The notes beneath the pieces are model-generated. The model saw only the letters and a list, made by a program, of their open reading frames with translations, was not told the DNA's origin and searched no databases. This document shows positions 1,311 through 29,011 of a stretch of DNA of 64,000 bases, in pieces. The position numbers and the translations under genes were made by a program. Source of the DNA: a virus (lineage: Duplodnaviria; Heunggongvirae; Uroviricota; Caudoviricetes); the IMG/VR virus record IMGVR_UViG_3300046820_001896; one strand, written 5' to 3'. Numbering within the stretch: position 1 is the first letter of the stretch; every line of letters begins with the position of its first letter.

Positions 1311-1340
1311 ATGTACAAATTGTGTTGAATGTGATATAAT
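1311..1340 (+). promoter_or_regulatory. middle-type promoter: ATGTACAA box, 16-nt spacer, TG-extended -10 (TGATATAAT)
   Basis: Matches the window-wide motif ATGTACAA-N16-TATAAT, 25 nt upstream of ATG 1366. Confidence 0.55.
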
Positions 1341-1365
1341 AGATTATACATTGTAAAGGAATAAT

Positions 1366-1941
1366 ATGCAAATCAATCTTCGTAAAGCAAACGCTATTCA
1401 GTCTGAAATCCGCAAGGCAATCAGCAGCGTAAAGGTAGAAAATAACATCACAGTAAGTGAATTCACTAGTGATGTAGATGCAGCTTTGAGTAAAGGTGCA
1501 TTAGAGTTCAACCAAGCGGTTGAACGTAAAGAAGCGCTTAACGATGCGCTATTCCAAATTCGTGCTGCAGTTGGTCGTGCAAACGCATCTGCAGGTATTA
1601 GCGATCTTTTGGCTGAAGTTGAAAACTTCGATGCGAAGATCAACCTAAAAACAGTTGTTGCAACAAGCACACCACGTAAAGAGATCACAGAGATCAATGC
1701 ACGTATCGTGAAAGCTAAGTCTGCTACTGGCGATAGAATGTCACTGTATGGTGATCGTCTAAGCAACGTAGAAACTGGTGTTGCAACAGAAGAAGCTATT
1801 CGCGTAGCTAAAGAGGAAGTAAAACGCCTTAAGCGCGAAAAGCAAGCATTAAGCGATAAGCTTTTGCAGTTGAATGTCAATACTCTAATTGAGTTGACAG
1901 ATAAAACAAAGGTAACTTTGACTGCAGAAGGCATTATCTAA
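1366..1941 (+). CDS. hypothetical coiled-coil protein (191 aa)
   Basis: Long ORF with promoter upstream. Antisense ORF 1398-1934 judged spurious. Confidence 0.5.
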   Translation: MQINLRKANAIQSEIRKAISSVKVENNITVSEFTSDVDAALSKGALEFNQAVERKEALNDALFQIRAAVGRANASAGISDLLAEVENFDAKINLKTVVATSTPRKEITEINARIVKAKSATGDRMSLYGDRLSNVETGVATEEAIRVAKEEVKRLKREKQALSDKLLQLNVNTLIELTDKTKVTLTAEGII

Positions 1942-2210
1942 AGTTTTGAAGATAGTGATGATAGGAGAGCCTTGCATTTTGACAAGCGCACAAAACTATC
2001 CATTACTGGATAGGTTTAAGCCCTGAAAGCTTAATCCGAACAATCGACCAACTTATACATAATTGCTCTCGAATAACATGACTCGAAAAGTCGCTGCTTA
2101 TTGCTCTCGAGAACCAATTGTTTGTGGTCTGCTTATTGCAAATTGCTTAATGCAGATTGCTGAGCGACTTGTCGCAGGTTTGAATTGATTCATTATCTTC
2201 ATCTTAATAT

Positions 2211-2284
2211 GTCTCGGTGGTGTAATGGCAGCACTGCGGTCTCCAAAACCGTTAGTGGGGGTTCGAGTCCCTCCCGGGATGCCA
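2211..2284 (+). tRNA. tRNA-Trp (CCA)
   Basis: Acceptor GTCTCGG/CCGGGAT (two G-U pairs), D-arm GTGT-AATGGCA-GCAC, anticodon stem GCGGT/ACCGT with loop CTCCAAA, T-arm GGGGG-TTCGAGT-CCCTC, encoded CCA. Confidence 0.7.
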
Positions 2285-2341
2285 AACAATGGCGTGGGTA
2301 GCAAGGAAAGATAGATTAGATTCTACACCTGCGTCGCCAAT

Positions 2342-2415
2342 GCGGGATTAGTTTAGTGGTAAAACGACATCCTTCCAAGTTGTAGTTGCGAGTTCGATTC
2401 TCGCATCCCGCTCCA
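2342..2415 (+). tRNA. tRNA-Gly (UCC)
   Basis: Acceptor GCGGGAT/ATCCCGC (same acceptor as Gly-GCC), anticodon loop CTTCCAA, T-arm GCGAG-TTCGATT-CTCGC, encoded CCA. One U-U mismatch in the anticodon stem. Confidence 0.7.
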
Positions 2416-2443
2416 ATAAAGAATTGCTGCTAATTTTTAAAGA

Positions 2444-2677
2444 ATGTTTTATATAATAACTAAAGATGGTTTCACATTGAATGCTAGTCCAACGTTGGAT
2501 GATGCAATGATTTTTGCTAAACATTATGGACGGTTTGTAACCATCAAAGGGAAAGATTTTGAAGCATGTGGTGTATTTGGCGTAGATTCTATTAAAGACG
2601 GAATATGTCCAGATGGCATTGCATATGATTGGAATAAAAAATCACGCATTGGTCGTGTAAAGAAAGAACGTAAATGA
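2444..2677 (+). CDS. hypothetical protein (77 aa)
   Basis: ORF between tRNAs. Confidence 0.4.
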   Translation: MFYIITKDGFTLNASPTLDDAMIFAKHYGRFVTIKGKDFEACGVFGVDSIKDGICPDGIAYDWNKKSRIGRVKKERK

Positions 2678-2705
2678 AACGAAAACATAAACCTCGAAAA
2701 CCTAT

Positions 2706-2780
2706 GGGGGTATAACTTAACGGCTAAAGTACCTGGCTTTTAACCAGATAATCAGAGTTCGATTCTCTGTGCCCCTACCA
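2706..2780 (+). tRNA. tRNA-Lys (UUU)
   Basis: Acceptor GGGGGTA/TGCCCCT, D-arm ACTT-AACGGCTA-AAGT, anticodon loop CTTTTAA, T-arm CAGAG-TTCGATT-CTCTG, encoded CCA. Confidence 0.75.
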
Positions 2781-2818
2781 TAAATCAAAGTATATTCACT
2801 GAGTGTATTTCGATCTAT

Positions 2819-2892
2819 GGTGTTAGTAGTGTAGTGGCTGCACGATTGTCTGTGAAACAATAAGAGAGGGTTCGATTCCCCCTTTCACCCCA
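2819..2892 (+). tRNA. tRNA-His (GUG) with encoded G-1 opposite discriminator C
   Basis: G-1 at 2819. Acceptor GTGTTAG/CTTTCAC (two central U-U), D-arm GTGT-AGTGGCT-GCAC, anticodon stem ATTGT/ACAAT with loop CTGTGAA, T-loop TTCGATT, CCA at 2890-2892. Confidence 0.6.
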
Positions 2893-3010
2893 AAATTTAT
2901 GCCTCGGTAGTTTAAAAGTAGAACACCCTCCTTACAAGTGGAAGACGGCGGAGCGTTACCGCAACGAGGTACCAAGATAAATAGTTAGAAGAGAAACAAA
3001 TGAGGTAGTT

Positions 3011-3568
3011 ATGAATGTGCTGGCATTAGACGTAGGTGGAATTCCACGTCAATGGTTAAACTTAGAACAAGCTATATTGTATCAAGCTAAAGGCCAAGTT
3101 GCTTGGTCTCTTGGTGATACAATCGCGAAGTTTCGTGGAGGTGTACAGAATGATGGAACAGAATCAATTCTTGAAACACCTTCTATCATCGCCATTAAAG
3201 GTGGTGAAGGTTTTAATCCAGCGAAGTTTGGTACAGTGGTTCTTAGCAATAAGACATTATTTGGTAGAGATCGTCATGTCTGCGCCTACTGCGGTAATCA
3301 TTTTACTTCTAATCATCTTTCCCGTGATCATATCGTTCCTATGTCACGTGGTGGTGAGAATAAGTGGATGAACGTAGTAACATCTTGCAAGAAATGTAAC
3401 TCACAAAAGAGTGACAAATCTTTGAAAGAAGCAGGTTTAGAGTTACTGTACATGCCTTACGAACCAAATCACTACGAACATATTATCCTTCAGAACCGCA
3501 ATATTCTTGCAGATCAAATGGATTATCTTCGGACAGGTGTACCAAAACATTCACGTGTTTTGTCTTAA
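3011..3568 (+). CDS. HNH endonuclease (free-standing, homing-endonuclease-like)
   Basis: HNH motif HVCAYCGNHF...RDHIVPMSRGG...NVVTSCKKCNSQK. Sits immediately after the tRNA island. Confidence 0.7.
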   Translation: MNVLALDVGGIPRQWLNLEQAILYQAKGQVAWSLGDTIAKFRGGVQNDGTESILETPSIIAIKGGEGFNPAKFGTVVLSNKTLFGRDRHVCAYCGNHFTSNHLSRDHIVPMSRGGENKWMNVVTSCKKCNSQKSDKSLKEAGLELLYMPYEPNHYEHIILQNRNILADQMDYLRTGVPKHSRVLS

Positions 3569-3578
3569 ATCAACGAAT

Positions 3579-3602
3579 GGAGGCTTATGCCTCCATTTTT
3601 TT
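3579..3602 (+). terminator. rho-independent terminator
   Basis: GGAGGC-TTAT-GCCTCC followed by ATTTTTTT. Confidence 0.6.
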
Positions 3603-3616
3603 GGATATATAATATT

Positions 3617-4162
3617 ATGAAAAGCTATATTTCTGTATTTGATAATGTTCTTGAAGAAGACTTTTGTAAAAATCTTCGAGAGAAATTTGAACGAAGTAAA
3701 GATGTTTGGGTTAGACGTGACGATAAGTTTAAAACATTTAATGAGATCAACTTCGGTCAATATCCAATTTTTGCTGAAGAGCAAAATACTATTCTTTCTA
3801 AAGTTCAGCCATACGTACAAAAGTACTGTGAGCAATGGGATATTAAATTTTTCCCAGAACAAATTGGCTTCGAACAAGTGCGTATGAAAAAATACGAAGT
3901 CGGTGGAAAAGAAGAGTTTCGCCATCACGTTGACGTAGGCGATTATGCATCTGCTCGACGTTTTCTTGTCATGTTTTTTTATCTCAATAATGTTGCTGAA
4001 GGCGGTGAAACTGCTTTCATTGGTATTAATGACGATCAACGGGTTTCACCCAAAACAGGTCGCTTGCTAATGTTTCCACCAATGTGGACACATCCTCATG
4101 CAGGTTTGCCACCTATCACCAATCCAAAATATATCGTAGGTACATACCTGCATTATACCTAA
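3617..4162 (+). CDS. 2OG-Fe(II) oxygenase superfamily protein (prolyl-hydroxylase-like); start revised to MKSY
   Basis: HxD (RHHVDVGD) and a distal His (THPHAG) with GGETAF and RLLMFP motifs. The first 10 codons of the track ORF lie inside the upstream terminator. Confidence 0.6.
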   Translation: MKSYISVFDNVLEEDFCKNLREKFERSKDVWVRRDDKFKTFNEINFGQYPIFAEEQNTILSKVQPYVQKYCEQWDIKFFPEQIGFEQVRMKKYEVGGKEEFRHHVDVGDYASARRFLVMFFYLNNVAEGGETAFIGINDDQRVSPKTGRLLMFPPMWTHPHAGLPPITNPKYIVGTYLHYT

Positions 4163-4170
4163 AGTACTAC

Positions 4171-4200
4171 ATGTACAGCAGGATATTTTTGTGGTATAAT
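4171..4200 (+). promoter_or_regulatory. middle-type promoter ATGTACAG-N16-TATAAT (TGTGG extended -10)
   Basis: Shares the 17-mer AAAGTACTACATGTACA with the promoter at 1301. Confidence 0.55.
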
Positions 4201-4224: not shown

Positions 4225-5157
4225 ATGCGTATTGCAGTAGCCAGTGATGTGCACCTAGAATTTGGTCCACTACTATTAAAAAATGAACAGAATGCAGATG
4301 TGCTTATCTTGAGTGGTGACATCTGCACAGCTAAAGGTCTTGACTATGCTGCAGGAAGCGGCATGTATGGTGATACGTATTCTACTTCTAAAAATCAACG
4401 ATTCATCGACTTCTTCAAAGCAATAACATTTCAATTTCCTCATGTGATCTATGTGTTAGGAAATCACGAGAGCTACAACTTTGATATCAAGTACACAGCT
4501 AAACACATCAAAGAACAGTTGCAACAATTCACAAACTTGTATGTTCTTGATGATGAATGTAAAAAAATTGATGATGTAACTTTCATCGGTGGTACCATGT
4601 GGACTGATATGAATAAAGAAGATCCACTAACATTATTTCATATCAAGAGCAGAATGAATGACTTCCGCGTTATCAAAAATGGTAATCGTGAAGTATTTCG
4701 CACTGTACCAATCTATGAATACAATGAAGATGGTAGCTTAAAGAAAGATGAGAATGGCTACAATATCCCAATTGGTCATAAGAAAAAGGCTGAAGTAGCA
4801 TCATTTAGCCCAGAAGATTCTGTTGAAATGCATAAAAGATTTAAACAGTATGTCGAAGTAGTTACAGATTTTTTAGGTGAGAATCCTAACAAATATGTTG
4901 TATGTACACATCATAGTCCTAGTTTTCAAAGTATGGCTCCATGGTATGCGAACGATCAACTAATGAATGGTGCATATCATAGTAATTTAGAAGAATTGAT
5001 GGAACGTCGTCCATGTATCAAATTGTGGACACATGGACATACACATGAACCATTCGACTATATGGTACACAACACAAGAGTTGTTTGTAATCCACGTGGT
5101 TATATTGGTCATGAACAACGCGCAAGAGATTTTGAATTAAAATACGTGGACGTTTAA
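4225..5157 (+). CDS. calcineurin-like metallophosphoesterase
   Basis: DVHLE, GDICTAKG, GNHE, THHSP and GHTH motifs. Confidence 0.7.
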   Translation: MRIAVASDVHLEFGPLLLKNEQNADVLILSGDICTAKGLDYAAGSGMYGDTYSTSKNQRFIDFFKAITFQFPHVIYVLGNHESYNFDIKYTAKHIKEQLQQFTNLYVLDDECKKIDDVTFIGGTMWTDMNKEDPLTLFHIKSRMNDFRVIKNGNREVFRTVPIYEYNEDGSLKKDENGYNIPIGHKKKAEVASFSPEDSVEMHKRFKQYVEVVTDFLGENPNKYVVCTHHSPSFQSMAPWYANDQLMNGAYHSNLEELMERRPCIKLWTHGHTHEPFDYMVHNTRVVCNPRGYIGHEQRARDFELKYVDV

Positions 5158-7315: not shown

Positions 7316-7323
7316 TATAAATA
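7316..7323 (+). promoter_or_regulatory. T4-type late promoter TATAAATA
   Basis: Exact TATAAATA 24 nt upstream of the PAAR gene ATG. Confidence 0.55.
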
Positions 7324-9098: not shown

Positions 9099-9653
9099 TT
9101 AAATAGTAATCGGTACAACTAACCATATACCTTGTGTTAGTAATAGAAGACCTATTACACCAACACCGAGGCTTGCATAATACATTCGCATATTGACAGC
9201 GATGATAGATGCGGATAATAAAACAATGGCGAGTTGGAATAACATTCCAGAGAATGTCAACCATGGACCATGTTTACGTGCTTCTTCACGTTCAGCTTCG
9301 TATGCTCTTGCTTTAGCTAAAAGTTCTTTCTTACCTTCACCAGATACTGGATCAGATTCGTATCTTTCGATCTTTGCTTTTAGTTTATCGGCTCTCGCAT
9401 GATCGCCTCTGTCTTTAGCTGTTTCGTATTCTGCTTCAGCTAATGATTGTTTCAATGATTTAGCTTGAAAGAATCCATACGTATTAGACGCTTTTAACAA
9501 ATTAGTCATCGCTGATCCGCTAAAGCTATTAGCAAAATATGTGTTTAATGCTAAGAACAATGCCATAATGACAATCACTAAACCAGCTTTGTCTTTAATT
9601 TGTGCTTCACGTTCGCTACGTGTCAATGGTTTCTTTTCTACAACTTCAGTCAT
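9099..9653 (-). CDS. membrane protein (184 aa, DUF4337-like topology)
   Basis: One TM segment near the N-terminus, a charged coiled-coil middle, and two C-terminal TM segments. Confidence 0.5.
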   Translation of the reverse strand: MTEVVEKKPLTRSEREAQIKDKAGLVIVIMALFLALNTYFANSFSGSAMTNLLKASNTYGFFQAKSLKQSLAEAEYETAKDRGDHARADKLKAKIERYESDPVSGEGKKELLAKARAYEAEREEARKHGPWLTFSGMLFQLAIVLLSASIIAVNMRMYYASLGVGVIGLLLLTQGIWLVVPITI

Positions 9654-9663
9654 ATAATTTCCT

Positions 9664-10158
9664 TTATTTTCCTGCTAATGGGTTATCCAAAGCTTTCTGA
9701 ATCTTATTATCTATCTCTTTACGTACGTTACGGATTTCACGATCTACTTCTTTTTGAGCTTCTGTTGCTTCACGTGCAGATTGTTTAGCTGAACGTTCTA
9801 CTTGTTCAACAACTCCTTCTAAACGACGGATATCATTCTTAAGATCATTCTTGATATCACGTGTGTAGTCATTTGTCTTTGAGCTGTTTTCTTCGATGAC
9901 AGCTAACTTTTTATGCACTTCAGTCAAATCTGGTGTAACATACTCAGCAATCTTTTTCTTCATGCTTTGATAGTCTTTATATACTTCGAATACGCCGTAT
10001 AAACCACCAAGTGTTGATGATACGATTGTTGCTGCAATCATCAATTTAGCTGGAGTAAATTCATAACCACCAATACTAATTACAGTATTAGCACTCATGT
10101 ATTTTTCTTTAGCATCTGCTAAATCGTCTATCTTTTTGTTTAAGTTTTTATCTGACAT
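9664..10158 (-). CDS. coiled-coil membrane protein (164 aa)
   Basis: TM segment IAATIVSSTLGGLYGVF plus a long charged helix. Confidence 0.5.
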   Translation of the reverse strand: MSDKNLNKKIDDLADAKEKYMSANTVISIGGYEFTPAKLMIAATIVSSTLGGLYGVFEVYKDYQSMKKKIAEYVTPDLTEVHKKLAVIEENSSKTNDYTRDIKNDLKNDIRRLEGVVEQVERSAKQSAREATEAQKEVDREIRNVRKEIDNKIQKALDNPLAGK

Positions 10159-10348
10159 TTTCTTCCCTTATTTCCACACTATATGTGTGCTTTTCTTTGT
10201 TGAACTAGATTTAGCAACTGGTTTTACAGGTGCTTTTCGTTTTTGTGGTGATTGAGCCTTAGTACAATTCAATTCGTAAAGCGTATAAAGGGATAGTGCT
10301 AAGGATATCACTGAAATTACATAAGCTACAAATGGCATATAATCCATG

Positions 10349-12292
10349 TCAATCCTTTCTGTTATATTGTGAATCAACCATATCATAGTGCACTTTATCT
10401 GAAGGACCAAATAGTCCCATACTTGCACGACGATTATCAATAGTCTTTTGATTGTTGTATACTGTAAATGGTTTGTAACCTGCCACATCTGGCATTTTTA
10501 CTTGATAAGCATCAAATCCTGGAGTAAAACCCATTGCTTGGATAACTACGTTTTGAATTTGCTTTTGCTGTTCCATATCAGCAGCTTTACCCATGTTTCC
10601 AGCTAAATTTTTACCATCCTCAACTGCTTTAGCTTTTGCTGCTGCTTCACGTCTTGCTTGAAGTTCTTGGCGTGCAGTTGGTTTTGGACTATCTGAAGTT
10701 TTACTATTATTTGTTGATGCAGTTGTTGTAGATCCACCAGAAGATGCTTGTGTATTTGATGGAGCATTTTCTTTAGGTTCTTCTTTTTTGGCTGGTGCAG
10801 GTGCTGTAGCGACTGACGTAACAGAAGTTGGTGAAGATGTGCTCGTAGAACTAACTGAAGGTGTTAAACTAACAGCAGTAGTCGCTGCTGCCGCAGGAGA
10901 CGCAGATGTAGATGTTGATGTAACAACGTTATTAACAACTGGATCTGATATCACCGCTACAGGAGTTGATGATGTATTTGTATTAGATGCTACAACTACA
11001 GTTTCGGCAACAGTAGTTGTTGTCGTAGTAGTAGGTGTGTTTTGTCTTTGTAATGCTTGTTGAGTAGCATACGCTTCACCATAATTTGGGCAACGAGTAG
11101 AATACAAACCGCTTATTGTACATTGTTGACTAAAATATGCTTCTTGATATCCTGGACAATCTGTAGCATATAACGCATTGATAGAACATTGCTGTGCTTT
11201 GTAAGCTTGTTGATAACCACTACACGTTGTAGAATATAATGGATTTAATGAACATTGTAATTCTAAATAAGCTGTCGCATAACCTGGACAGTTCACAGAA
11301 TATAGTGTATTCAATGAACATTGTTGCTCGAAGTATGCTTGTTGATAACCACTACATGTTGTAGAATATAATGGATTAATAGAGCATTGTTGTTGTAAAT
11401 AAGCAGCTTGATAACCTGGACATTGTTGACTATACAATGGATTTGTAGAGCATTGTTGTGTTAAGTGTGCAGCTGCATATCCTGGACAAGATGGATCAAA
11501 TAATGCACTTATTGTACATTGTTGAGCAGTGTAAGCAACTTGATATCCTGGACATGTTGGTGATGATAATGGATTGATGATACACATGTCAACTGGACCT
11601 GTACCATTAGGTGCTTGCCAACTAAAAATACTTGCACTTCCAGGCGTAATGTTTAAACCTCGGCCGTGATAGTATTGATAATACTCACCATTTGCCAAGT
11701 TACCAGACATACCTGAAGTAACTGCATTCCATTGTACCATGGCACCAGCAATTCGTGTATCAACTAAACCAGCAGAGTTGATTTTAATCTCAAAACTATT
11801 ACCGCCTTGTGATGAACAACATTGACTTAAATTATACCAACCATATGTCATACTATTACCTTCACGCAGGTAATATTGGTTTTGGCCATTCCAAGAATAT
11901 AAATCTGTGTGTATACCAAAAATAGAGTAATTGTAACGAGGATCTGTTGTTGTTCTTAAATCAACACCTGTACAACATAATCCATAAGCACCGCTTTGCA
12001 TTGGATCTTGGAACGTTACAACGCCATTAGTCATTGCCCATGAATTATTGAACACTCTACCAAAAAATGGAAAATCAAAACCTAATGGAACATTGCGCCA
12101 ATCGTCATCAGCTGCAGTAATATTAACTGCATTTGGATTTGTGCGAATATTTTGTAAAGGTAAAGCATTAGCGCCTGTTCCAACTGTTATCGACAATCCA
12201 GGAGGAGCACCAGGAATTTGGATCGTAACAAGTTCAGCACGTGCAACAACCGTGCTTACTAATAATAGTAAGGACACAAGTAAGCGCTTCAT
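10349..12292 (-). CDS. secreted repeat protein: N-terminal globular domain, then eight ~20-aa Cys repeats (CPGYQxAYxxQQCSxNPLYS), a Thr/Ser linker, and a C-terminal domain
   Basis: 647 aa. Signal peptide MKRLLVSLLLLVSTVVARA. Eight tandem repeats with two Cys each. Roughly 120 aa of low-complexity T/S/A/P sequence. Confidence 0.6.
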   Translation of the reverse strand: MKRLLVSLLLLVSTVVARAELVTIQIPGAPPGLSITVGTGANALPLQNIRTNPNAVNITAADDDWRNVPLGFDFPFFGRVFNNSWAMTNGVVTFQDPMQSGAYGLCCTGVDLRTTTDPRYNYSIFGIHTDLYSWNGQNQYYLREGNSMTYGWYNLSQCCSSQGGNSFEIKINSAGLVDTRIAGAMVQWNAVTSGMSGNLANGEYYQYYHGRGLNITPGSASIFSWQAPNGTGPVDMCIINPLSSPTCPGYQVAYTAQQCTISALFDPSCPGYAAAHLTQQCSTNPLYSQQCPGYQAAYLQQQCSINPLYSTTCSGYQQAYFEQQCSLNTLYSVNCPGYATAYLELQCSLNPLYSTTCSGYQQAYKAQQCSINALYATDCPGYQEAYFSQQCTISGLYSTRCPNYGEAYATQQALQRQNTPTTTTTTTVAETVVVASNTNTSSTPVAVISDPVVNNVVTSTSTSASPAAAATTAVSLTPSVSSTSTSSPTSVTSVATAPAPAKKEEPKENAPSNTQASSGGSTTTASTNNSKTSDSPKPTARQELQARREAAAKAKAVEDGKNLAGNMGKAADMEQQKQIQNVVIQAMGFTPGFDAYQVKMPDVAGYKPFTVYNNQKTIDNRRASMGLFGPSDKVHYDMVDSQYNRKD

Positions 12293-12294
12293 GC

Positions 12295-12768
12295 TTACTC
12301 TTTACTTTTTACTTTTTGTGGCTTGCGATCTGGATCTGCTTCCCAGATTTGTTTAGCCTGTTCACCGATTTTGCCATCTGCTGGACATGGTGTACCAGCA
12401 TTCATCATAGCTGTGAATACACGTTCATCTTGGCATAAAGTTGATACAGCTGCAACTTTCATACCCATATCGTATAATGAACGAGCTAATTTTAAGCGTT
12501 CGCAGTTCTTATCGGTAACACTACCGCCAAAAGAAATGCCCAACACTTGAGTTTGAGCAGCGCCTGAATATCCTACTGCACAGACGTCACTATTGATAAC
12601 TGTAATTGCTGGTGCAACTGCAGTTGGAGGAGGAGATTTTACTGTTGTTGTGCTATTTGAAGTAGAATCTGTTGTGGATCTACTTGTCGAGTCGGTAACA
12701 ATTGGTTGAGCAATTGTTAATGATGTAGTCATAACAAAAAGCACCGTTGCGGCGATCTTTTTGTACAT
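12295..12768 (-). CDS. secreted Ser/Thr-rich protein (158 aa), start revised to MYKKIAAT
   Basis: Signal peptide, S/T-rich stretch, Cys-containing C-terminal domain. Confidence 0.5.
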   Translation of the reverse strand: MYKKIAATVLFVMTTSLTIAQPIVTDSTSRSTTDSTSNSTTTVKSPPPTAVAPAITVINSDVCAVGYSGAAQTQVLGISFGGSVTDKNCERLKLARSLYDMGMKVAAVSTLCQDERVFTAMMNAGTPCPADGKIGEQAKQIWEADPDRKPQKVKSKE

Positions 12769-12834
12769 GGTTTTTCCTGTTTTAGTTATTATAATGAAAC
12801 CAGTGGCATTTTTTGCCACCATGACACTTATTGT

Positions 12835-12853: not shown

Positions 12854-13363
12854 ATGAAAACGCACATTTTAGGCAATGGTCCTTCCAATATATTATATGA
12901 ACCAAGCGATGGATACGTAATCGGTTGTAATGTACAAACCCATCCAGTTGATATATCAATTGCTGTTGATATAAAACCATTCCATTTGTACATGGCAAAT
13001 AGGATGATTTTTCAAGGTAAACCTATCATCACTTCTCAATATGCTATGGATGGAATTAAACATAAAGACATTGAGAAAGAACTAGACATCATTTATAAGT
13101 TACCTTTTTTAGAAAAATATATGAGTGCAGGTCATATCGCTGCAAAATGGGCAATTGATAATGGATACACAGAAATTCATCTATGGGGATTTGACTCAAT
13201 TTGGTCAGATAGCCAAGAAACAAAAACTGACATACTAATTCCTAGAGATAGACGGCAACACGACTTACCTATCCATTGGAGAGAAAAATGGCAACAATTT
13301 AAAACATACAACATAATCGTGCATAACACAATAGAAGGCACACAACTGAAAGACTTAATATGA
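12854..13363 (+). CDS. hypothetical protein (169 aa), possibly Rossmann-like
   Basis: ORF after a late promoter; GNGPS..GCN..HLWGFD pattern. Confidence 0.5.
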   Translation: MKTHILGNGPSNILYEPSDGYVIGCNVQTHPVDISIAVDIKPFHLYMANRMIFQGKPIITSQYAMDGIKHKDIEKELDIIYKLPFLEKYMSAGHIAAKWAIDNGYTEIHLWGFDSIWSDSQETKTDILIPRDRRQHDLPIHWREKWQQFKTYNIIVHNTIEGTQLKDLI

Positions 13364-13638
13364 ACAAGAACCAAATACAAGAGATTGATTTCGATTTCGG
13401 GTTTACTGCTGTCGATGAGGAAGAACTTGAAGCGGTACAAACAGTCACTGCACAAGTAGAAGCAACAAGCGGGGAAGTAGAGACACTTAAAGAAAAGTTG
13501 AAGACGCTACGTGCATGTATCGAACCACTACTAAAGAATCTGGAAGCAAATCCTGAGAAAGCATACATCCACTGGCCAGATCGTACAAGCAAGGTTAAGG
13601 CATTTAGGAGTAAATTAGACTCGATACAAAAGTTCTAA
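13360..13638 (+). CDS. hypothetical acidic protein (92 aa)
   Basis: ORF; ATGA overlap. Confidence 0.45.
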   Translation: MNKNQIQEIDFDFGFTAVDEEELEAVQTVTAQVEATSGEVETLKEKLKTLRACIEPLLKNLEANPEKAYIHWPDRTSKVKAFRSKLDSIQKF

Positions 13639-13679: not shown

Positions 13680-13707
13680 AAGCCAATGATTTCATTGGCT
13701 TTTTCTT
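13680..13707 (+). terminator. rho-independent terminator
   Basis: AAGCCAATGA-TT-TCATTGGCTT followed by TTTTC. Confidence 0.6.
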
Positions 13708-13741: not shown

Positions 13742-13771
13742 ATGTACAAACTGCAGGAAACGCTGTATAAT
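13742..13771 (+). promoter_or_regulatory. middle-type promoter ATGTACAA-N16-TATAAT
   Basis: Motif match, 32 nt upstream of 13803. Confidence 0.5.
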
Positions 13772-13802: not shown

Positions 13803-14150
13803 ATGAAATACACATTAGACGAAGGCATCTCAAAAGCTGTACAACTTATGCAAGATAGTTACATTAATTTGTACAAAGCTCGCGCTGATGACAATGCTGC
13901 ACGCAAAGTTTTTGCTGCAGAACAAGTAGAAAAGTTTATCAAAACTACACGTATTGAAAAAGGTCGTAACTATGTAAAAATTGCCGCTGATGGTAGCGTT
14001 AAATTTTTTGTCGTAGCAAAAGCAACAAAAGGTTTTAATGTCGGTGATATTTTGAAAGCTGCATCGTGGCGTGCACCAGCAACAAACTTTGCACGCGGTA
14101 ACGTTATCGATGGAGATTTTAGTCAAATTACATGGACAGGAGCATACTAA
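13803..14150 (+). CDS. hypothetical protein (115 aa)
   Basis: ORF. Confidence 0.5.
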   Translation: MKYTLDEGISKAVQLMQDSYINLYKARADDNAARKVFAAEQVEKFIKTTRIEKGRNYVKIAADGSVKFFVVAKATKGFNVGDILKAASWRAPATNFARGNVIDGDFSQITWTGAY

Positions 14151-14314: not shown

Positions 14315-14344
14315 ATGTACAAACAAGAAAAAGTGTGGTATAAT
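14315..14344 (+). promoter_or_regulatory. middle-type promoter ATGTACAA-N16-TATAAT (TGTGG extended -10); near-leaderless
   Basis: The -10 ends 5 nt before ATG 14350. Confidence 0.5.
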
Positions 14345-14349: not shown

Positions 14350-14508
14350 ATGACAAAACGAAAGGTAACTCGCAAAGCAAATCCGATAGCGAAAGATTTG
14401 CGTACACCGAAGTACCGCATGCGTGTTGTCAAAAGCAAGAAAGCTTACACACGTAAGCAACGTAGTGAAATCATTAACATTGAAATGGAGTTAAATCATG
14501 GGTCGTAA
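14350..14508 (+). CDS. small basic protein (52 aa) resembling ArfA (alternative ribosome-rescue factor)
   Basis: MTKRKVTRKANPIAKDLRTPKYRMRVVKSKKAYTRKQR. The pattern N.I....P..R.RV.K.KK..Y.RK resembles the ArfA core (from memory; no search possible). Confidence 0.35.
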   Translation: MTKRKVTRKANPIAKDLRTPKYRMRVVKSKKAYTRKQRSEIINIEMELNHGS

Positions 14509-17048: not shown

Positions 17049-17078
17049 ATGTACTGCAGGAAATTAATGTGGTATAAT
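17049..17078 (+). promoter_or_regulatory. middle-type promoter ATGTACTG-N16-TATAAT
   Basis: Motif match with TGTGG extended -10. Confidence 0.5.
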
Positions 17079-17097: not shown

Positions 17098-18294
17098 ATG
17101 GCAACAGTAAAGATTAATGGTAAGGCTTTCAAGCCACCAAAAAAGCGTATCACAAACCCATTGATGGTTGATGAGAAGTACACTGGAGAGGAACCGATCT
17201 TTGCTGGTGTCGAATTCAAAGACGAGACTCATCGCAAAGTCTCGTTAATGAGAGCTTTTAATTATTACAACTACTTCAATAGCGGTAAACACTTTAAGAA
17301 AGACTTGATTAAATATGCTAAAGACGAACTTAAATTCAGTAAAGACAAGCTTGAATTGTTGGATAGCTCGCCTGATTGGACTGCTGAACTACAATCTGGA
17401 GCTCTTTTGCGTATGCGTAGTCGCGGTCTTGTTCTTCGCGATGCAGAGTTTAAATACATAAACAACGTTCTCGAAAAAATGATGCTTGCGACTACACGCA
17501 AGATCAAAGAAGATGCTGTTGAAGATGCAAAAGATGCAGCAAACGGTCATGTTAAACGTGAAGTCATATCAGTACAAGAACGTCTTCGAATGAAAGTGGA
17601 TGCAACTGTATTAGGCGATCTCGAAGACATGCTCGATCAATGGATTATGGGAGAATCACCATTCATTGATGTATACGAAGCAATGAAAGCAGCCATTTTA
17701 CCTGCAATGGCATCTAAACATATCATTGATTGGTCTCAAAGGCATCTTGTGGAGATTCAAGGTGCTATAAATAAGACAGATCCTCAGTTAGTTGAGGGTT
17801 ATTCTCATCTTACATTAAAACGTAAGAAAGAATTTGCATCATGGTTCGAGGGTATTATTGCAGATGCTCAGCGTTTTGGTACTAACACTAAGACTGTCCG
17901 CAAAGCCCGTACGAAAAAACCTGTATCTCTCGAGAAACAAGTCTCGAAGCTCAAATACTTGAAGGAGTCGCCCGAGCATAAATTAGTTTCGATCAATCCG
18001 TCTCTGATAATCGGTGCCACAGAGTTGTGGACTTACAATGTTAAGTACAAATCTCTAACGCGCTATATCGCTGAGTCAGGTCTTGGGTTTGAAATCAAGG
18101 GCACTTCCCTTATCAAGTTTAATACTTCCGAATCCCAAACACGTACACTACGTAAGCCTGAAGAAACGTTATCAGAGGTGCTGTCGTCTTCAAAAACGAA
18201 AGCAGCCAAACTTTTTGCTTCACTTACTACGAAGCCTAAAGAACCAAATGGACGGATCAACGAAGATACGATCATTTTAAAGGTAACTAAATGA
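17098..18294 (+). CDS. hypothetical protein (398 aa)
   Basis: Long ORF. Confidence 0.55.
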   Translation: MATVKINGKAFKPPKKRITNPLMVDEKYTGEEPIFAGVEFKDETHRKVSLMRAFNYYNYFNSGKHFKKDLIKYAKDELKFSKDKLELLDSSPDWTAELQSGALLRMRSRGLVLRDAEFKYINNVLEKMMLATTRKIKEDAVEDAKDAANGHVKREVISVQERLRMKVDATVLGDLEDMLDQWIMGESPFIDVYEAMKAAILPAMASKHIIDWSQRHLVEIQGAINKTDPQLVEGYSHLTLKRKKEFASWFEGIIADAQRFGTNTKTVRKARTKKPVSLEKQVSKLKYLKESPEHKLVSINPSLIIGATELWTYNVKYKSLTRYIAESGLGFEIKGTSLIKFNTSESQTRTLRKPEETLSEVLSSSKTKAAKLFASLTTKPKEPNGRINEDTIILKVTK

Positions 18295-18821
18295 CAGAAA
18301 TATTAATCGCGATCACTACATGGATATCGGCGTTGGTAAACCCGATTCCATTAAATGAGCAAGATGTATATTGTCTAACACGTAACGCATACTACGAAGC
18401 GAAAGGGGATTCGCAGATGTCACAGATCGCTGTGACACACGTAGTTTTAAATCGCATGAAAGATCCAGGTTTTCCTAAGAGTGCCTGCGATGTAGTCTAT
18501 CAAAAGACTAAACACGAAGCAAAGACTACATGTCAGTTTTCGTGGACATGCGATCGCCGATTAATGGGTCAACTTGCACCGCAAGAATCCGATATTTGGC
18601 AAGATTCTTTAGAATCAGTTCGTCAAGCACTAAAGATGTATTATCATCGCAATGTTGACGTAACACAAGGATCTACATTTTATCATGCGCACTATGTCAA
18701 TCCACAATGGAGAGGCGTAGAACGAGTAACAACAATTGGTAGCCACATATATTATAAGGTAAATGAAAAATGTCAGAACAACCAGAAGGCATGTTCACAA
18801 AAAAGTCGTTCAGCGATTTAG
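18291..18821 (+). CDS. SleB-like cell-wall hydrolase (Hydrolase_2 family)
   Basis: CLTRNAYYEAKGDS...IAVTHVVLNRMKD...CDVVYQ...CQFSW resembles the SleB/CwlJ hydrolase core. Confidence 0.6.
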   Translation: MTEILIAITTWISALVNPIPLNEQDVYCLTRNAYYEAKGDSQMSQIAVTHVVLNRMKDPGFPKSACDVVYQKTKHEAKTTCQFSWTCDRRLMGQLAPQESDIWQDSLESVRQALKMYYHRNVDVTQGSTFYHAHYVNPQWRGVERVTTIGSHIYYKVNEKCQNNQKACSQKSRSAI

Positions 18822-19006
18822 TTCAAGAACGAGTTAAGAAGGATCGATCAACATACCTCGATGCAATCATGGATATTTGCAAAGAGCGTATGTTAGATCC
18901 AGAAGACGTGGCAAAAATGTTGAGTAATCCTATTAAAGCCAAACTCGAGGCTGAAGGGATGAATCTTGGTTATTTAAAGAAAAAGAATGAGTTACAGTTC
19001 GATTGA
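18770..19006 (+). CDS. small protein (78 aa) in the position of T4 gp33/dsbA
   Basis: Located immediately upstream of gp59-gp32, as in T4. Confidence 0.35.
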   Translation: MSEQPEGMFTKKSFSDLVQERVKKDRSTYLDAIMDICKERMLDPEDVAKMLSNPIKAKLEAEGMNLGYLKKKNELQFD

Positions 19007-19607
19007 TGGCTTCACAGCATACCAAAAGTATATTGCAATTAAGTTGCACTTTGAATCAAAGACGTATGACTATTTCAAATACAATGGTAAATCGAGCGTA
19101 ACTCCTAAATCATTCTTTGCTCGTAGAGATAAGTACTTCTTTGCGAAACTAGTGAGGACGTATGGCATCGACGAGTTACCATACTTTTTTGCTTGTAACT
19201 TTGCACATCATGGTACGAAGTGGGTTGGTGGATTAACTGACGATCAAGCTGATGAGACGTATAAGTCTTATAAAAGTTTGTTAGAAAGTTTCACATATCG
19301 CTTCAAAAATGATATAGATAAAATTATATCGGTGAACGACTTCAAAAGTTTGTTTGTGGTAGAGGATGGACAACATCCTAAACTCGTTAAGATGTTAATT
19401 CAAAACGAGATACCACTCGAGACCTTTGTTGTCCTTAATCGATACATAGACTTCATGCCGAAGTTCGACAAAGAGATAACAGATCCCATCATGTGGCCTG
19501 ATATCTCGCTGAAGATCAGAAAGTATGATAAGTTTATTTCGGTGAATAACAAAAAAGTCGCAGAGGCGTTAAAAGATTGTTTACAATCGAATGCCGTTGT
19601 GGTATAA
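18987..19607 (+). CDS. 59: gp59 helicase-loading protein
   Basis: RRDKYFFAKLVRTYGIDELPYFFACNF matches T4 gp59 RRDKYFFQKLSEKY...; 206 aa; adjacent to gene 32. Confidence 0.75.
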   Translation: MSYSSIDGFTAYQKYIAIKLHFESKTYDYFKYNGKSSVTPKSFFARRDKYFFAKLVRTYGIDELPYFFACNFAHHGTKWVGGLTDDQADETYKSYKSLLESFTYRFKNDIDKIISVNDFKSLFVVEDGQHPKLVKMLIQNEIPLETFVVLNRYIDFMPKFDKEITDPIMWPDISLKIRKYDKFISVNNKKVAEALKDCLQSNAVVV

Positions 19608-19608
19608 T
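19579..19608 (+). promoter_or_regulatory. middle-type promoter variant GTTTACAA-N16-TATAAT (TGTGG extended -10)
   Basis: Inside the gp59 3' end, upstream of gene 32. Confidence 0.45.
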
Positions 19609-19653
19609 AGTTATTCCATACAATGTTAAACACTGCTATATAAGGAACATAAT

Positions 19654-20550: not shown

Positions 20551-20559
20551 TTGAGTTAT

Positions 20560-20585
20560 GGGTGGGGGAAACTCCACCCATTTTA
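20560..20585 (+). terminator. rho-independent terminator after gene 32
   Basis: GGGTGG-GGGAAACT-CCACCC followed by ATTTTAT. Confidence 0.55.
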
Positions 20586-22518: not shown

Positions 22519-22539
22519 CTCGCAACGCAATTACATGCA

Positions 22540-22562
22540 GCCACCTTCGGGTGGCTTTTTTA
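22540..22562 (+). terminator. rho-independent terminator
   Basis: GCCACC-TTCG-GGTGGC followed by TTTTTT. Confidence 0.65.
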
Positions 22563-22565: not shown

Positions 22566-22595
22566 GTGTACAGCAGAGAATAAATGTGGTATAAT
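22566..22595 (+). promoter_or_regulatory. middle-type promoter GTGTACAG-N16-TATAAT
   Basis: Motif match. Confidence 0.45.
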
Positions 22596-22626: not shown

Positions 22627-22938
22627 ATGAGTGAATATACACCCGATCGATGGGTTTTGGTTGAATTGACTGTCACAGAGACAGGTGAGACACACACGAA
22701 AGTGTTTGCTGGTTGGTACGGCGGATACGGTGGTGCAGACTCATGGAAATTATCTTCGGGTGTTGTGAACACTGAAGATCGTGATGACTATTATGAATTC
22801 ACCAATCATAGTGGATCTGTCTATCGATGCTATAAGAATGCACAAGGAATGGGTGCATATATGAGTAGCGTTTACAGCGGTTTCCAACGTGATGCTGAGA
22901 AGACCGGTAAGTTTACCATGAATGTATTGAACATGTAA
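22627..22938 (+). CDS. hypothetical protein (103 aa)
   Basis: ORF. Confidence 0.45.
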   Translation: MSEYTPDRWVLVELTVTETGETHTKVFAGWYGGYGGADSWKLSSGVVNTEDRDDYYEFTNHSGSVYRCYKNAQGMGAYMSSVYSGFQRDAEKTGKFTMNVLNM

Positions 22939-24138: not shown

Positions 24139-24332
24139 AATCATTCCTTCATACAGAAGACATAGATCGCATCAAGGCACTGATGGAAGCCATTGATTAT
24201 GATGGTAACTTTGAGATCGAGATCGATGAATCCTCAGGCATAGGAAGGACAGTCATTGTACATGTACCATATTCAGTCAATTCATTGCGTGGTACATTTT
24301 CTTATATTATTTCAAATGTGGAGAACTGGTAA
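24132..24332 (+). CDS. hypothetical protein (66 aa)
   Basis: ORF. Confidence 0.35.
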   Translation: MVKSFLHTEDIDRIKALMEAIDYDGNFEIEIDESSGIGRTVIVHVPYSVNSLRGTFSYIISNVENW

Positions 24333-24841
24333 TGAGTAACTATGAAAAACATGCATTGATGGAATTCCGTGCTGCAGGATGGATAGATGAGAATGGTAAT
24401 TATATCGATGAGATGCAAGAGATGATTTGTCGTCATGTACTTGCATTACTTGATGTATTCGATGGTGAGGGACATAGTGGATCCTCTGCACCGTATGCTA
24501 TCAATTTATTCTCCAAACTTGCTAAGTTTGATCCTGTTGTGCCATTGACTGGTGAAGATTGGGAATGGACTGAGGTAAGCGAACGAATGGGTAGCAAGTG
24601 TTGGCAAAACAAACGATGCGGTAAGGTGTTCAAGGATGAGGATGGACGAGCATACGATATCGATGGGAAAGTTTTTTGGGAATGGAGTGGTACGAAGGAA
24701 GATCCATATAAGTCGCACTACACATGCCGAGAATCTCGTGTGTATGTCACCTTCCCATATACTCCATCGACTGAGTATGTGTATCGATACTCTGATGCCA
24801 CTCCACCTGCCCCACCACAAACAGAGCAAGGGTTACTATGA
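24332..24841 (+). CDS. hypothetical protein (169 aa)
   Basis: ORF. Confidence 0.45.
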   Translation: MSNYEKHALMEFRAAGWIDENGNYIDEMQEMICRHVLALLDVFDGEGHSGSSAPYAINLFSKLAKFDPVVPLTGEDWEWTEVSERMGSKCWQNKRCGKVFKDEDGRAYDIDGKVFWEWSGTKEDPYKSHYTCRESRVYVTFPYTPSTEYVYRYSDATPPAPPQTEQGLL

Positions 24842-25293: not shown

Positions 25294-25322
25294 ATGTACA
25301 AACTCACCCATTGTGATAGAAT
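25294..25322 (+). promoter_or_regulatory. middle-type promoter ATGTACAA-N15-TAGAAT
   Basis: Motif match with slightly shifted spacing. Confidence 0.4.
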
Positions 25323-25355: not shown

Positions 25356-25541
25356 ATGTACGGATACCTGCAAAGCTCATATGAACAAGACTTGGAAGTA
25401 GTCAAAGCCAAACTCGCCGAGGAAGGCATTCTCCACTACACAACATATAAGGCTAATCACTGTGTTGGTGTAAATTATGGTCGAGTCAGTGCATATTATA
25501 TTGTTCGTAATGGTAAGGTTGTAGATGTCCAAATCGATTGA
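25356..25541 (+). CDS. hypothetical protein (61 aa)
   Basis: ORF after a promoter. Confidence 0.35.
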   Translation: MYGYLQSSYEQDLEVVKAKLAEEGILHYTTYKANHCVGVNYGRVSAYYIVRNGKVVDVQID

Positions 25542-26396: not shown

Positions 26397-26527
26397 AAAG
26401 AACAGAGACATAGGCAACAAAAGAGAACATCAAAAGAATAAGCCACAATGTGATTGTTGGTTATGTCGAGAAGGTAAGACAAAAAAGCGTGTCATAAGGG
26501 ATAAGGACATAAGAAAGGAACTCGGTT

Positions 26528-26719
26528 ATGCAAGAATCGGACTCAATAACATATAAGTGTATAGAATGTGGTAATGATGCCACATGGATTAGATCAACAC
26601 AATTTGCAGGGGATCATCCATTTTGTGAGGAACATGCAAAGCAAGAGGAAGGATTTGGTATAAACGACTCATATGAGTATTGGTACCAGATAGAAACAAA
26701 GGTTCTAGGTAGCAACTGA
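26528..26719 (+). CDS. small zinc-ribbon protein (63 aa)
   Basis: CIECG...CEEH. Confidence 0.35.
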   Translation: MQESDSITYKCIECGNDATWIRSTQFAGDHPFCEEHAKQEEGFGINDSYEYWYQIETKVLGSN

Positions 26720-26852
26720 AGCTCGCTCCCATGCCATCCTGTGAAATAAAGGGATTAAATGAGTAGTCCCCAGAGCCAAGAAGACCCGTGTAAGCCAATG
26801 ATCTGTATAGACAAATAATACTGTACTGAAACGGTAGACTACTCAAATAAAC

Positions 26853-26882
26853 ATGTACAAGGGGCTGTGGGTGTGGTATTAT
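26853..26882 (+). promoter_or_regulatory. middle-type promoter ATGTACAA-N16-TATTAT
   Basis: Motif match. Confidence 0.45.
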
Positions 26883-26915
26883 CTATCCATAGATTGAATA
26901 ACATAAGGATAGTAA

Positions 26916-27839
26916 ATGACTCAAGTTTCTGTAATGATCGCCTTTGACAAGGCTGCTGGCAAGTTCAAGTGTTCTATTAATGGTCAGAAGTTTACCACGA
27001 CCAAACAGTCTTACATCGAATACATGTTCAAGCAAATCACTGGTCAAAAGCGTACATTCAAAGACATCGAGGCAATGCAAAAAGCCACTGTTGAGAAGTT
27101 TGGCATCAACGAACGATTTGGTTTCGTGGAGAAGATCGTAGGCATGGTCGCCACTGGCATCCAGCCATCTACAGTGATCACCGGTCAAGGTGGTTTGGGC
27201 AAGACATACACTGTCATGAAGACTCTCAAGGCTTCTGGTCTCCAAGACTACAATGAATTAATCCAACGTTTGCCTTCTGGCTCTACGATCCAAATGTCTA
27301 AGGTGTATGTCACTGTCAAAGGTTACTCTACTCCTAAGGGTTTGTACCGTACTCTGTTCGAGAATCAGAATGCAACCATTGTGTTCGATGACTGTGATTC
27401 TATCCTCAAAGACCCTGTTGCCCTTAACTTGCTCAAAGGTGCTTTGGACTCCTATGGCAAGCGCATCATCTCTTGGAATGCAGAGTCCTTTGGCAAGGAC
27501 GACGAGTTGCCACGTAGCTTCGAGTTCAAAGGTCGTGTAGTGTTCATCTCTAACATGGACCAAGACAAGATTGACCAGGCAATCCGTAGTCGTTCTATGA
27601 TGATTGACTTGTCCATGACAGACGATCAGAAAATCGACCGTATGGCTCACATTGCAGACAGCGAAGAATTCATGCCAGAATACGACGCTAAAGTCAAGTC
27701 CGATTCACTTGCTCTGATCCGCGAAGTTAAAGACGATGCTAAAGAAATCAGTCTCCGTACTTTGATCAGTGTTTGTAAGATCCGCGCAGCTAACCCTGTG
27801 GACTACAAAGACCTCGCAACTTACATCTTGACTAACTAA
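26916..27839 (+). CDS. P-loop NTPase / AAA-family ATPase
   Basis: Walker A GQGGLGKTY, Walker B IVFDDCD, sensor-like SN. Confidence 0.6.
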   Translation: MTQVSVMIAFDKAAGKFKCSINGQKFTTTKQSYIEYMFKQITGQKRTFKDIEAMQKATVEKFGINERFGFVEKIVGMVATGIQPSTVITGQGGLGKTYTVMKTLKASGLQDYNELIQRLPSGSTIQMSKVYVTVKGYSTPKGLYRTLFENQNATIVFDDCDSILKDPVALNLLKGALDSYGKRIISWNAESFGKDDELPRSFEFKGRVVFISNMDQDKIDQAIRSRSMMIDLSMTDDQKIDRMAHIADSEEFMPEYDAKVKSDSLALIREVKDDAKEISLRTLISVCKIRAANPVDYKDLATYILTN

Positions 27840-28000
27840 TTGGGAGTTTTTATGTTGACAGACAAAGAGATATGCGACCTCAGGGATGAGATCCAGATCA
27901 TGATTATTCAGAAGGTCCAGGAGAGACTCGATCCGAACTTGTCTATTGATGAATGTGTCGAGCAGACAGACGAGATCATGGACTTTATTAAGGAGATGAT

Positions 28001-28195
28001 GTGAAGCTGTTCAGGGAGACGACTAAGGATTGGCAGCAGCCTACCCCCAATCATGCCTATGTACTGTCAGATGACAAACAGTGGATGTATGGGTATGTCA
28101 AGGCTGGTACACGGGACCTGATCACCCTCTCCAAGAGGATTAGGTTTGATGCCAGGTACAGGACATTTGTAGCATTAAAGAAAGGACAAATATGA
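28001..28195 (+). CDS. hypothetical protein (64 aa), GTG start
   Basis: AGGAG RBS 5 nt upstream of the GTG. Confidence 0.35.
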   Translation: MKLFRETTKDWQQPTPNHAYVLSDDKQWMYGYVKAGTRDLITLSKRIRFDARYRTFVALKKGQI

Positions 28196-28325
28196 AACTA
28201 TTCAATGCAGTGACAGACATGATCCAGGCACGGATGTACATGTGTCTATTAGGAGTAATCATTGTTGTGGTAGGGATGCTCTCCCCACAATTAGCGCTTA
28301 AGTGTGTACAGACAGGAGTCAACAG

Positions 28326-28520
28326 ATGAAGAAATACACAGCATCCACCAGATGGACACAACCGTATCATTACATCACCGGATGGAGAAAACGTCAGACC
28401 ATCAATAGAGTATTAGATGATCTACATACACAGCAACTAGACTTCATTGATGCAGCAGTAGATCAGTCAGATTTGTCAGATGCAAAGACAATCATTGCTC
28501 ATATCATGCAGAAACAATAG
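28326..28520 (+). CDS. hypothetical protein (64 aa), start revised to MKKYTAST
   Basis: ATGA overlap with the small membrane ORF at 28192-28329. Confidence 0.35.
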   Translation: MKKYTASTRWTQPYHYITGWRKRQTINRVLDDLHTQQLDFIDAAVDQSDLSDAKTIIAHIMQKQ

Positions 28521-28531
28521 TATACAGGCAG

Positions 28532-28565
28532 GGGTACCTATAGGAAACTAAGGTACCCTTTTATT
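28532..28565 (+). terminator. rho-independent terminator
   Basis: GGGTACCT-loop-AGGTACCC followed by TTTTATT. Confidence 0.6.
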
Positions 28566-28981
28566 AAGGTTCCATATTAATAGGAGACCATCTATAAGTT
28601 ACATACTCGGTTAAACCGTTGTCGTCCGTCACAAAGACAAAAAATAAAAAATTCCCCCCATGGGCAGAATATCCCCAGGATGTCAGTCCCTTCCAAGGAT
28701 GAACAGTAACCAATTATCTTTTTCCAGATAATTACAGATAATTCGCCATAGAAAAATTCCCCCCAGGGTTTATCCCTTCTCCTGGGGGTAATACTGTATC
28801 CAAGAGATTAATACTATACAACCTTCACATTGTTCCCCCCTTAGGTTGTTTGTTTCTCATGATACAGAATGTATCCCATTGTATACAGAATACTGCAGTT
28901 TGTATACTATAAGAAACAATATTGTATCATTAATGAGTCCCTAAGCTACTTAATGACTACTATATGATCCATTACAATACC

Positions 28982-29011
28982 ATGTACAACAATATATTTC
29001 TATGGTATAAT
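28982..29011 (+). promoter_or_regulatory. middle-type promoter ATGTACAA-N16-TATAAT
   Basis: Motif match. Confidence 0.5.

Follow-up and report, generated by a model that had tools for sequence, protein, structure and literature searches.

The stretch analysed here (hereafter the window, 64,000 nt at its full length) comes from a tailed-phage genome, IMG/VR record IMGVR_UViG_3300046820_001896. It carries ten co-oriented copies of a composite signal between 1311 and 29011. In this signal, an (A/G)TGTACA box is followed by TATAAT 17 bp from its TGTACA core, and TGTGG usually stands before the -10. We consider it probable that the ten sites are early promoters, which the host polymerase with its primary sigma factor would recognise through an extended -10 and a variant -35, with no phage activator. 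They have the architecture of phage T4 early promoters with a lineage-specific, one-base change in the -35, and would not constitute a new MotA-type middle promoter. A first-pass annotation had described the repeated box-TATAAT motif (at least ten copies), called it a promoter with a sigma70-type TG-extended -10, and likened its geometry to T4 middle promoters, implying a MotA/AsiA-like activator of different DNA specificity. We confirm the motif and the promoter call. The activator, however, had been deduced from a misread geometry.

The ten predicted promoters are the following.

1311..1340, plus strand: promoter, ATGTACAA-N16-TATAAT, with TGTGA before the -10; 25 nt to the ATG at 1366 of a 191-aa open reading frame (ORF).
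4171..4200, plus strand: promoter, ATGTACAG-N16-TATAAT, with TGTGG; 24 nt to the ATG at 4225 (metallophosphoesterase operon).
13742..13771, plus strand: promoter, ATGTACAA-N16-TATAAT, lacking TG at -15/-14; 31 nt to the ATG at 13803.
14315..14344, plus strand: promoter, ATGTACAA-N16-TATAAT, with TGTGG; ATG 5 nt past the -10.
17049..17078, plus strand: promoter, ATGTACTG-N16-TATAAT, with TGTGG; 19 nt to the ATG at 17098.
19579..19608, plus strand: gene 32 promoter, GTTTACAA-N16-TATAAT, with TGTGG.
22566..22595, plus strand: promoter, GTGTACAG-N16-TATAAT, with TGTGG; 31 nt to the ATG at 22627, where a run of small ORFs opens.
25294..25322, plus strand: weaker variant promoter, ATGTACAA, 16-bp spacer, TAGAAT, with TGTGA; 33 nt to the ATG at 25356.
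26853..26882, plus strand: promoter, ATGTACAA-N16-TATTAT, with TGTGG; 33 nt to the ATG at 26916 (AAA-type ATPase, phrog_1250).
28982..29011, plus strand: promoter, ATGTACAA-N16-TATAAT, with TATGG.

The strict pattern ATGTACAR-N16-TATAAT matched five times (1311, 4171, 13742, 14315 and 28982), always on the plus strand, and never in 100 dinucleotide-preserving shuffles. The other five sites (17049, 19579, 22566, 25294 and 26853) are real, each with one or two deviations. The core lies 17 bp from the -10 in nine sites and 16 bp in one (25294). The -10 is TATAAT in 8/10, TATTAT in one and TAGAAT in one; thus the exact N16 spacing and the invariant TATAAT claimed by the first-pass annotation hold for most sites, but not for 25294 (one base shorter, TAGAAT) or 26853 (TATTAT). 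The pentamer before the -10 is TGTGG at six sites, in keeping with the earlier 'usually', TGTGA at two, and TATGG and CGCTG at one each. TG occupies -15/-14 in nine of the ten, and TAnnnT is present in all.

Allowing one mismatch in total with the 17-bp spacer, we find nine sites on the plus strand and none on the minus strand. A weight matrix built from nine sites gave them 26-41 bits, a circular score as the same sites trained the matrix. The best other position in 128 kb (both strands) reached 11 bits, and random-sequence maxima were 6-15 bits. Because of this gap, with the best remaining score inside the random range, the promoter class is discrete and has no missed members in the window. 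A second, weaker subclass was rejected, as nothing else rose above noise in the matrix scan. A generic sigma70 scanner run on 12.8-29.5 kb also ranked these sites top, the best five having 10-11 of 12 consensus matches. The hexamer TGTACA by itself is not enriched (52 copies observed, 47 expected), so only the composite is special. The same count led us to reject a role of TGTACA as a target of restriction or methylation.

All ten sites are intergenic or lie within the final codons of the preceding ORF, 5-45 nt from a plus-strand start codon. No site occurs past 29012, that is, none in the structural module at 29-64 kb. The placement described earlier, before early/middle genes including gene 32 and absent from the structural module, was therefore borne out, the sites being confined to the non-structural block.

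With TATAAT set at -12 to -7, the 8-mer box covers -36 to -29 and its TGTACA core -35 to -30. The core fills the -35 slot of sigma70 promoters, for which 17 bp is the optimal spacing. TGTGG supplies the TG of the extended -10 plus an additional upstream TG. In T4, the Mot box reads (a/t)(a/t)(a/t)TGCTTtA; 11-13 bp separate it from the -10, and its GCTT falls at -30 to -27 (PMC1524935). Here, the box is (A/G)TGTACA(A/G), and the earlier remark that it differs from the TGCTT MotA box is correct. Its distance from the -10 is 16 bp for the 8-mer and 17 bp for the core hexamer, in contrast to 11-13 bp. The Mot box pattern occurs in the window only inside coding regions, and the pattern search found no intergenic T4-type Mot box promoter. 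The sites do share with MotA/AsiA middle promoters a sigma70-type -10 and a conserved upstream box other than TTGACA, and the orthologs of genes 32 and 59 are under middle control in T4. They differ in the sequence and position of the box and in that no MotA or AsiA was detected in the window or in 80 related loci.

The fit to T4 early promoters is much closer. These have GTTTAC at -36 to -31 and a GT-rich stretch before -12 (PMC1524935). In the T4 genome, the intergenic promoters 5' of motA, ndd.4 and ndd.6 read gTTTACA-N12-(T/c)GTGG-TACTAT. Scanning T4 at 158-169 kb, a strict regular expression returned almost nothing because the -10 boxes there are TACTAT, and relaxing it to TAnnnT recovered known-type early promoters. 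The window form, aTGTACA-N12-TGTGG-TATAAT, has an equal architecture with T changed to G at -34. All ten sites have a T(T/G)(T/G)AC(A/T) hexamer 17 bp (+/-1) from the -10, and TGTGG or TGTGA makes the -10 upstream region GT-rich and TG-extended in eight. Window and T4 thus share xTxTACA-N12-TGTGG-TAnnAT at the 17-bp hexamer spacing. They also share an intergenic, co-oriented position 5' of small early ORFs, tRNA genes and replication genes and outside the late module. At the gene 32 site (19579), the -35 is GTTTACA, the exact T4 early sequence; this promoter sits in the final codons of gp59 (TGT TTA CAA, Cys-Leu-Gln). Upstream, A is present at -44 to -39 in 20-30 of the 52 promoters of the clade described below versus a 33% background, a modest enrichment that may correspond to the A-rich, UP-like region (around -40 to -44) of T4 early promoters. 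The differences are that the window hexamer is mostly TGTACA (G at -34) where T4 has TTTACA, and that the window -10, TATAAT, is nearer to consensus than the TACTAT of the three T4 examples. Moreover, no Alt homologue was identified for the window phage among the approximately 65 plus-strand ORFs of 1-29.4 kb that were scanned.

The window encodes gp32, gp59, gp33 and the T4-type baseplate and tail genes gp5, gp6, gp27, gp48 and gp53-like. Its gp32 is about 53-56% identical to those of Prochlorococcus/Synechococcus phages, Pelagibacter phage HTVC008M and Methylophilales phage Melnitz. A megablast search of 13-20 kb against 50,697 phage records found no close isolate, the sole match being gene 32 of cyanophages (170-240 bp, 73-76%). 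Because of the low gp32 identity and the lack of a phage record with a DNA-level match beyond that segment, we assign the window by its sequence to an uncultured T4-like myovirus of the marine/aquatic T4-like supergroup.

Searching IMG/VR with gp32 gave 80 related loci at 58-95% identity, of which 13 contigs (L001-L013) form the close clade. Promoters of this clade were collected with the form T(G/T)TAC(A/T)-N17-TATAAT, allowing one -10 mismatch; T-35, T-33, A-32 and C-31 are fixed by this pattern. The window and L001-L013 together hold 52 distinct promoters, in which T-17, G-16, T-15, G-14 and G-13 are strongly conserved, the spacers are variable, and G occupies -34 in 41. Comparison of orthologous sites shows the box and the -10 retained around diverging spacers. 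This was seen for the 13742 site in L003, L007 and L012, and for the 17049 site, where a (G/A)TGTACA box and the -10 were kept in 9/10 related loci recovered. The 26853 promoter is conserved in L002. In L004, the counterpart of the 14315 site has GTTTACA in place of ATGTACA, and gene 32 is preceded by (G)TTTACA-N17-TATAAT in most relatives examined, including the whole close clade.

Across the 80 loci, the hexamer at this spacing is TTTACA at 100 sites, TGTACA at 80 and TTGACA at 25. On the gp32 tree, the preference is clade-specific: TGTACA prevails in the window clade and in a second clade (L044/45/58/79), the canonical TTGACA in another (L055/68/48/73), and TTTACA in most others. Single substitutions connect TTGACA, TTTACA and TGTACA, as expected of variants of one -35 element. 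Neither a site dedicated to an activator nor a palindromic operator would easily account for such single-step changes.

Searching for the postulated activator gave no candidate. There were no MotA or AsiA Pfam domains in the scanned plus-strand ORFs, and tblastn of T4 MotA and AsiA against the window and the 80 loci returned nothing significant (best E = 0.03, inside a 2118-aa structural ORF). The suggested motA/asiA homologues were therefore not found within the 64-kb window or the 80 loci, and together with the TTTACA/TTGACA interchange this speaks against a MotA/AsiA-like activator. T4-like cyanophages are reported to lack motA, asiA, alt, modA and modB and to have sigma70-like motifs at early genes (PMC2984593), and only early and late promoters are described for Melnitz (PMC9004378). 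Sigma70 predictions for S-PM2, Syn9 and Melnitz, members of the same supergroup, likewise give early and late classes with no identifiable middle promoters, and a late motif (N/T)ATAAATA. Unlike the present analysis, they used generic sigma70 tools, and the clade-specific TGTACA is not reported in the texts consulted on them.

If the ten sites are early promoters of this kind, sigma regions 2.4 and 3.0 would engage the near-perfect extended -10, TGTGG-TATAAT, and region 4.2 would contact TGTACA at -35 to -30, 17 bp upstream. TGTACA equals TTGACA at four of six positions and is one base apart from the T4 TTTACA. Transcription would start about 6-8 nt past the -10, giving leaders of 0-45 nt with an AAGGA- or GGAG-type ribosome-binding site. 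Later, TATAAATA promoters would take over through late machinery of the gp33/gp55 type.

Several points weigh against this explanation. Polymerase binding, start sites and timing are deduced from sequence. TGTACA lacks the TTG that is usually the key part of a -35, so the -35 contact may be weak and the extended -10 dominant; yet a merely tolerated, weak -35 does not explain the strict G at -34 in the clade (41/52). A phage factor could be encoded outside the 64 kb, the genome being probably larger than 140 kb. That the host's primary sigma factor is of the sigma70 type is presumed. In the transcriptome of the related cyanophage Syn9, host-like promoters reportedly lie on middle genes and a different element on early genes. 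Whether 'early' or 'middle' is the right label for the window promoters is therefore uncertain.

Overall, we consider a factor-dependent reading of the promoters improbable. There is a small chance that the -35 hexamer, switched several times among marine T4-like clades and near-invariant within each, is matched to a lineage-specific partner, which would make TGTACA a true specificity determinant. Candidates for the partner are a factor, encoded by the phage or injected, that acts on the host polymerase by remodelling or modification, and a host sigma region 4 of altered specificity. If so, TGTACA would separate phage from host transcription and be more than a tolerated weak -35.

It is quite unlikely that TGTACA is the site of a phage MotA-like activator working with an AsiA-like sigma-remodelling protein (sigma appropriation), as a middle-mode promoter of new box specificity. 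The box departs from TTGACA at -34/-33, positions normally critical for sigma region 4, and is strictly conserved in the clade nonetheless; but it lies 17 bp from the -10 and not at the 11-13 bp of Mot boxes, in a layout that in T4 early promoters needs no activator. A clade-specific hexamer fits co-evolution with a phage factor, whereas TTTACA and TTGACA substitute for TGTACA in relatives, once at an orthologous site. Sites do occur 5' of replication-type genes (the gp59/gp32 region) that are MotA-controlled in T4, but neither a MotA/AsiA domain (plus-strand ORFs of 1-29.4 kb) nor similarity to these proteins (window and 80 loci) was found, and the phage group is reported to be without motA and asiA (PMC2984593).

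We regard as very unlikely a model after T4 Alt, in which an injected phage protein modifies the host polymerase and G/T at -34/-33 marks phage versus host promoters. T4 early promoters are strong even with the unmodified polymerase. Alt ADP-ribosylates the alpha subunit and favours T4 early promoters. Position -33 of the T4 early -35 region has been linked to Alt-modified alpha (PMC1524935), a tuning that clade-specific hexamers would suit; however, cyanophage-type T4-likes are reported without alt, modA and modB (PMC2984593). The plus-strand ORFs of 1-29.4 kb contained no ADP-ribosyltransferase family, which tests the model only weakly: as a packaged protein of the late class, Alt would be encoded elsewhere.

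Extremely unlikely is an operator, at which a dimeric phage or host repressor would occlude the -35 and shut off or gate the promoter class: the six bases of TGTACA form a perfect palindrome, at a position from which a bound protein would obstruct the polymerase, and phages without AsiA must shut off early transcription somehow, but the symmetry is confined to the hexamer (flanks A...A, not A...T), the hexamers that replace it in sister clades, TTTACA and TTGACA, are not palindromic, 44 other TGTACA copies are scattered at background frequency, and the Pfam scan of the early region gave no DNA-binding domain, helix-turn-helix or otherwise.

Reading the ten sites as early promoters for the host polymerase yields an early-promoter model, aTGTACAa-N10-TGTGGTATAAT, for an uncultured marine T4-like clade. 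Annotation would gain operon starts, an assignment of early versus late genes and a likely leaderless small ORF. The clade-specific -35 hexamer, changed by single steps, is a possible and modestly useful lineage marker, and offers a small test case of phage promoters tracking or deliberately departing from the host consensus. No new regulatory mechanism is revealed.

Some of the sites adjoin stem-loops, three of which are given here.

13680..13701, plus strand: terminator-like stem-loop AAGCCAATGATTTCATTGGCTT with a T-run after it; the 13742 promoter lies 40 nt downstream, and the stem-loop would be the PeSL-like part.
22539..22556, plus strand: intrinsic-terminator-like hairpin AGCCACCTTCGGGTGGCT followed by TTTTTT, adjoining the 22566 promoter as a terminator/promoter composite.
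Just upstream of the 14315 promoter: small hairpin TGCGAATTAATTCGCA.

A long-range hairpin (z = -5.1) lies upstream of the 4171 promoter. An upstream stem-loop or terminator is thus clear at 4/10 sites (4171, 13742, 14315 and 22566) and not evident at the other six. Recurrent upstream modules, for example GCGAATTAATTCGC and TTTTTAGGGGGGCC, are present in the relatives. The PeSL (promoter-early stem-loop) cassettes of T4-like phages, for which a role in recombination has been proposed, combine a stem-loop with a sigma70-like early promoter that is followed by a Shine-Dalgarno sequence and a start codon, and their promoter consensus varies by lineage: TTGACA-N17-TATAAT in RB49, TTTACW-N17-TAYWAT in T4/PST and TTGYVH-N17-TAWWAT in KVP40 (Comeau 2014, PMC4122927). 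Several window sites have a stem-loop or terminator attached on their 5' side, so the elements would fit another lineage-specific PeSL version. As in those cassettes (Arbiol 2010; Comeau 2014), the stem-loop or terminator, where present, is directly 5' of a sigma70-like promoter, followed by Shine-Dalgarno and start codon; the units repeat between small ORFs of variable regions; and the -35/-10 consensus is lineage-specific. They are unlike PeSLs in that only about 4/10 sites have the clear stem-loop. L001-L013 and the window differ in the genes that surround the sites, and some orthologs are missing.

For the structural module, the first-pass annotation had proposed a separate late promoter, and TATAAATA was indeed found before structural genes at 7316, 12839 (both strands), 34264, 43032, 59648 and 62351. 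The palindrome TATTTATAAATAA at 12835-12850 matches TATAAATA on both strands and lies in a 31-bp divergent intergenic gap. It apparently serves both the minus-strand unit 9099-12822 and the plus-strand unit 12854-13638. One component of the late machinery is encoded in the early region.

18770-19006: gp33, late-machinery component.

Besides gp33, the Pfam families in the scanned plus-strand ORFs are gp59, Cpn10, HNH, 2OG-Fe(II) oxygenase, PAAR, GH19, Band 7, WYL_2, GT25, VWA and Tad3. GC content along the window is 30-42%. A tRNA cluster at 53-2971 holds 12 genes according to ARAGORN and 14 according to Rfam (the Rfam-only pair being 1044-1116 and 2901-2971). It contains tRNA-Thr(TGT) twice, and a tRNA called Ile(TAT) at 1207-1301 is unusually long (95 nt). 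The Rfam scan detected tRNAs only, and no RNA family 3' of any of the promoters. The 1311 promoter is located within this cluster, directly 3' of the 1207-1301 tRNA. Past the 191-aa ORF of its unit come further tRNAs and genes for an HNH protein and a 2OG-Fe(II) oxygenase.

The spacers at 4178-4184, 13752-13758, 17056-17062 and 22573-22578 share GCAGGA(A/T)A or GCAGAG directly 3' of the -35 box, and GCGGG or GCAGG is frequent at that position in the relatives. It may represent a sub-motif of the spacer or, alternatively, a relic of duplicated cassettes.

The 52-aa ORF at 14350-14508 (plus strand) probably has a leaderless mRNA because its ATG stands only 5 nt after the -10. The protein is very basic (MTKRKVTRKANPIAKDLRTPKYRMRVV...) and is kept in L001, L004 and L006 with synonymous changes. 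Its Pfam matches are weak and sub-threshold: DUF7230 (E = 0.015) and the alternative ribosome-rescue factor ArfA (E = 0.17).

The unit after 17049 comprises a 398-aa phrog_11903 gene, a cell-wall hydrolase, gp33 and gp59. Downstream of the 19579 promoter, the gene 32 5' leader (window 19609-19653; L014-L050) is conserved among distant relatives, for example with GTGGATAATTCAG...AATACA repeats, and reads AGTTATTCCATACAATGTTAAAC in the window clade. This conservation recalls the autoregulatory translational operator of T4 gp32. A terminator-like hairpin (20558-20581) follows gene 32. In the small-ORF run downstream of the 22566 promoter, a 169-aa early-region ORF at 24332-24841 (plus strand) has a Pfam match to the type I Thoeris inhibitor Tad3 (E = 8.6e-35) and is an anti-defence gene.

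The 28982 promoter heads a short unit with small ORFs at 29056 and 29107-29343, ending in a hairpin terminator at 29343-29374. The approximately 460 bp just upstream of this promoter (28520-28980) have no convincing ORF or Rfam match and carry the repeat AAAAATTCCCCCC(A/T)GG at 28647 and 28752, with C-run/G-run segments. Within the unit, a 33-nt direct repeat (85% identical), TTAGAGCGTCGTGGGGG..., occurs at 29068-29100 and 29188-29220. One copy is in a 15-codon ORF and the other in the 78-aa ORF at 29107-29343, and both encode LERRGG.

In the structural region, 44410-50766 (plus strand) is one 2118-aa ORF between baseplate wedge genes and a tail-fibre-like gene at 51004-52095. Inside the structural/tail-fibre block, 52524-56425 holds enzyme genes, namely a radical SAM protein (477 aa, phrog_1802) and a 373-aa, weakly PAPS-reductase/QueC-like protein, which may form a modification cassette.

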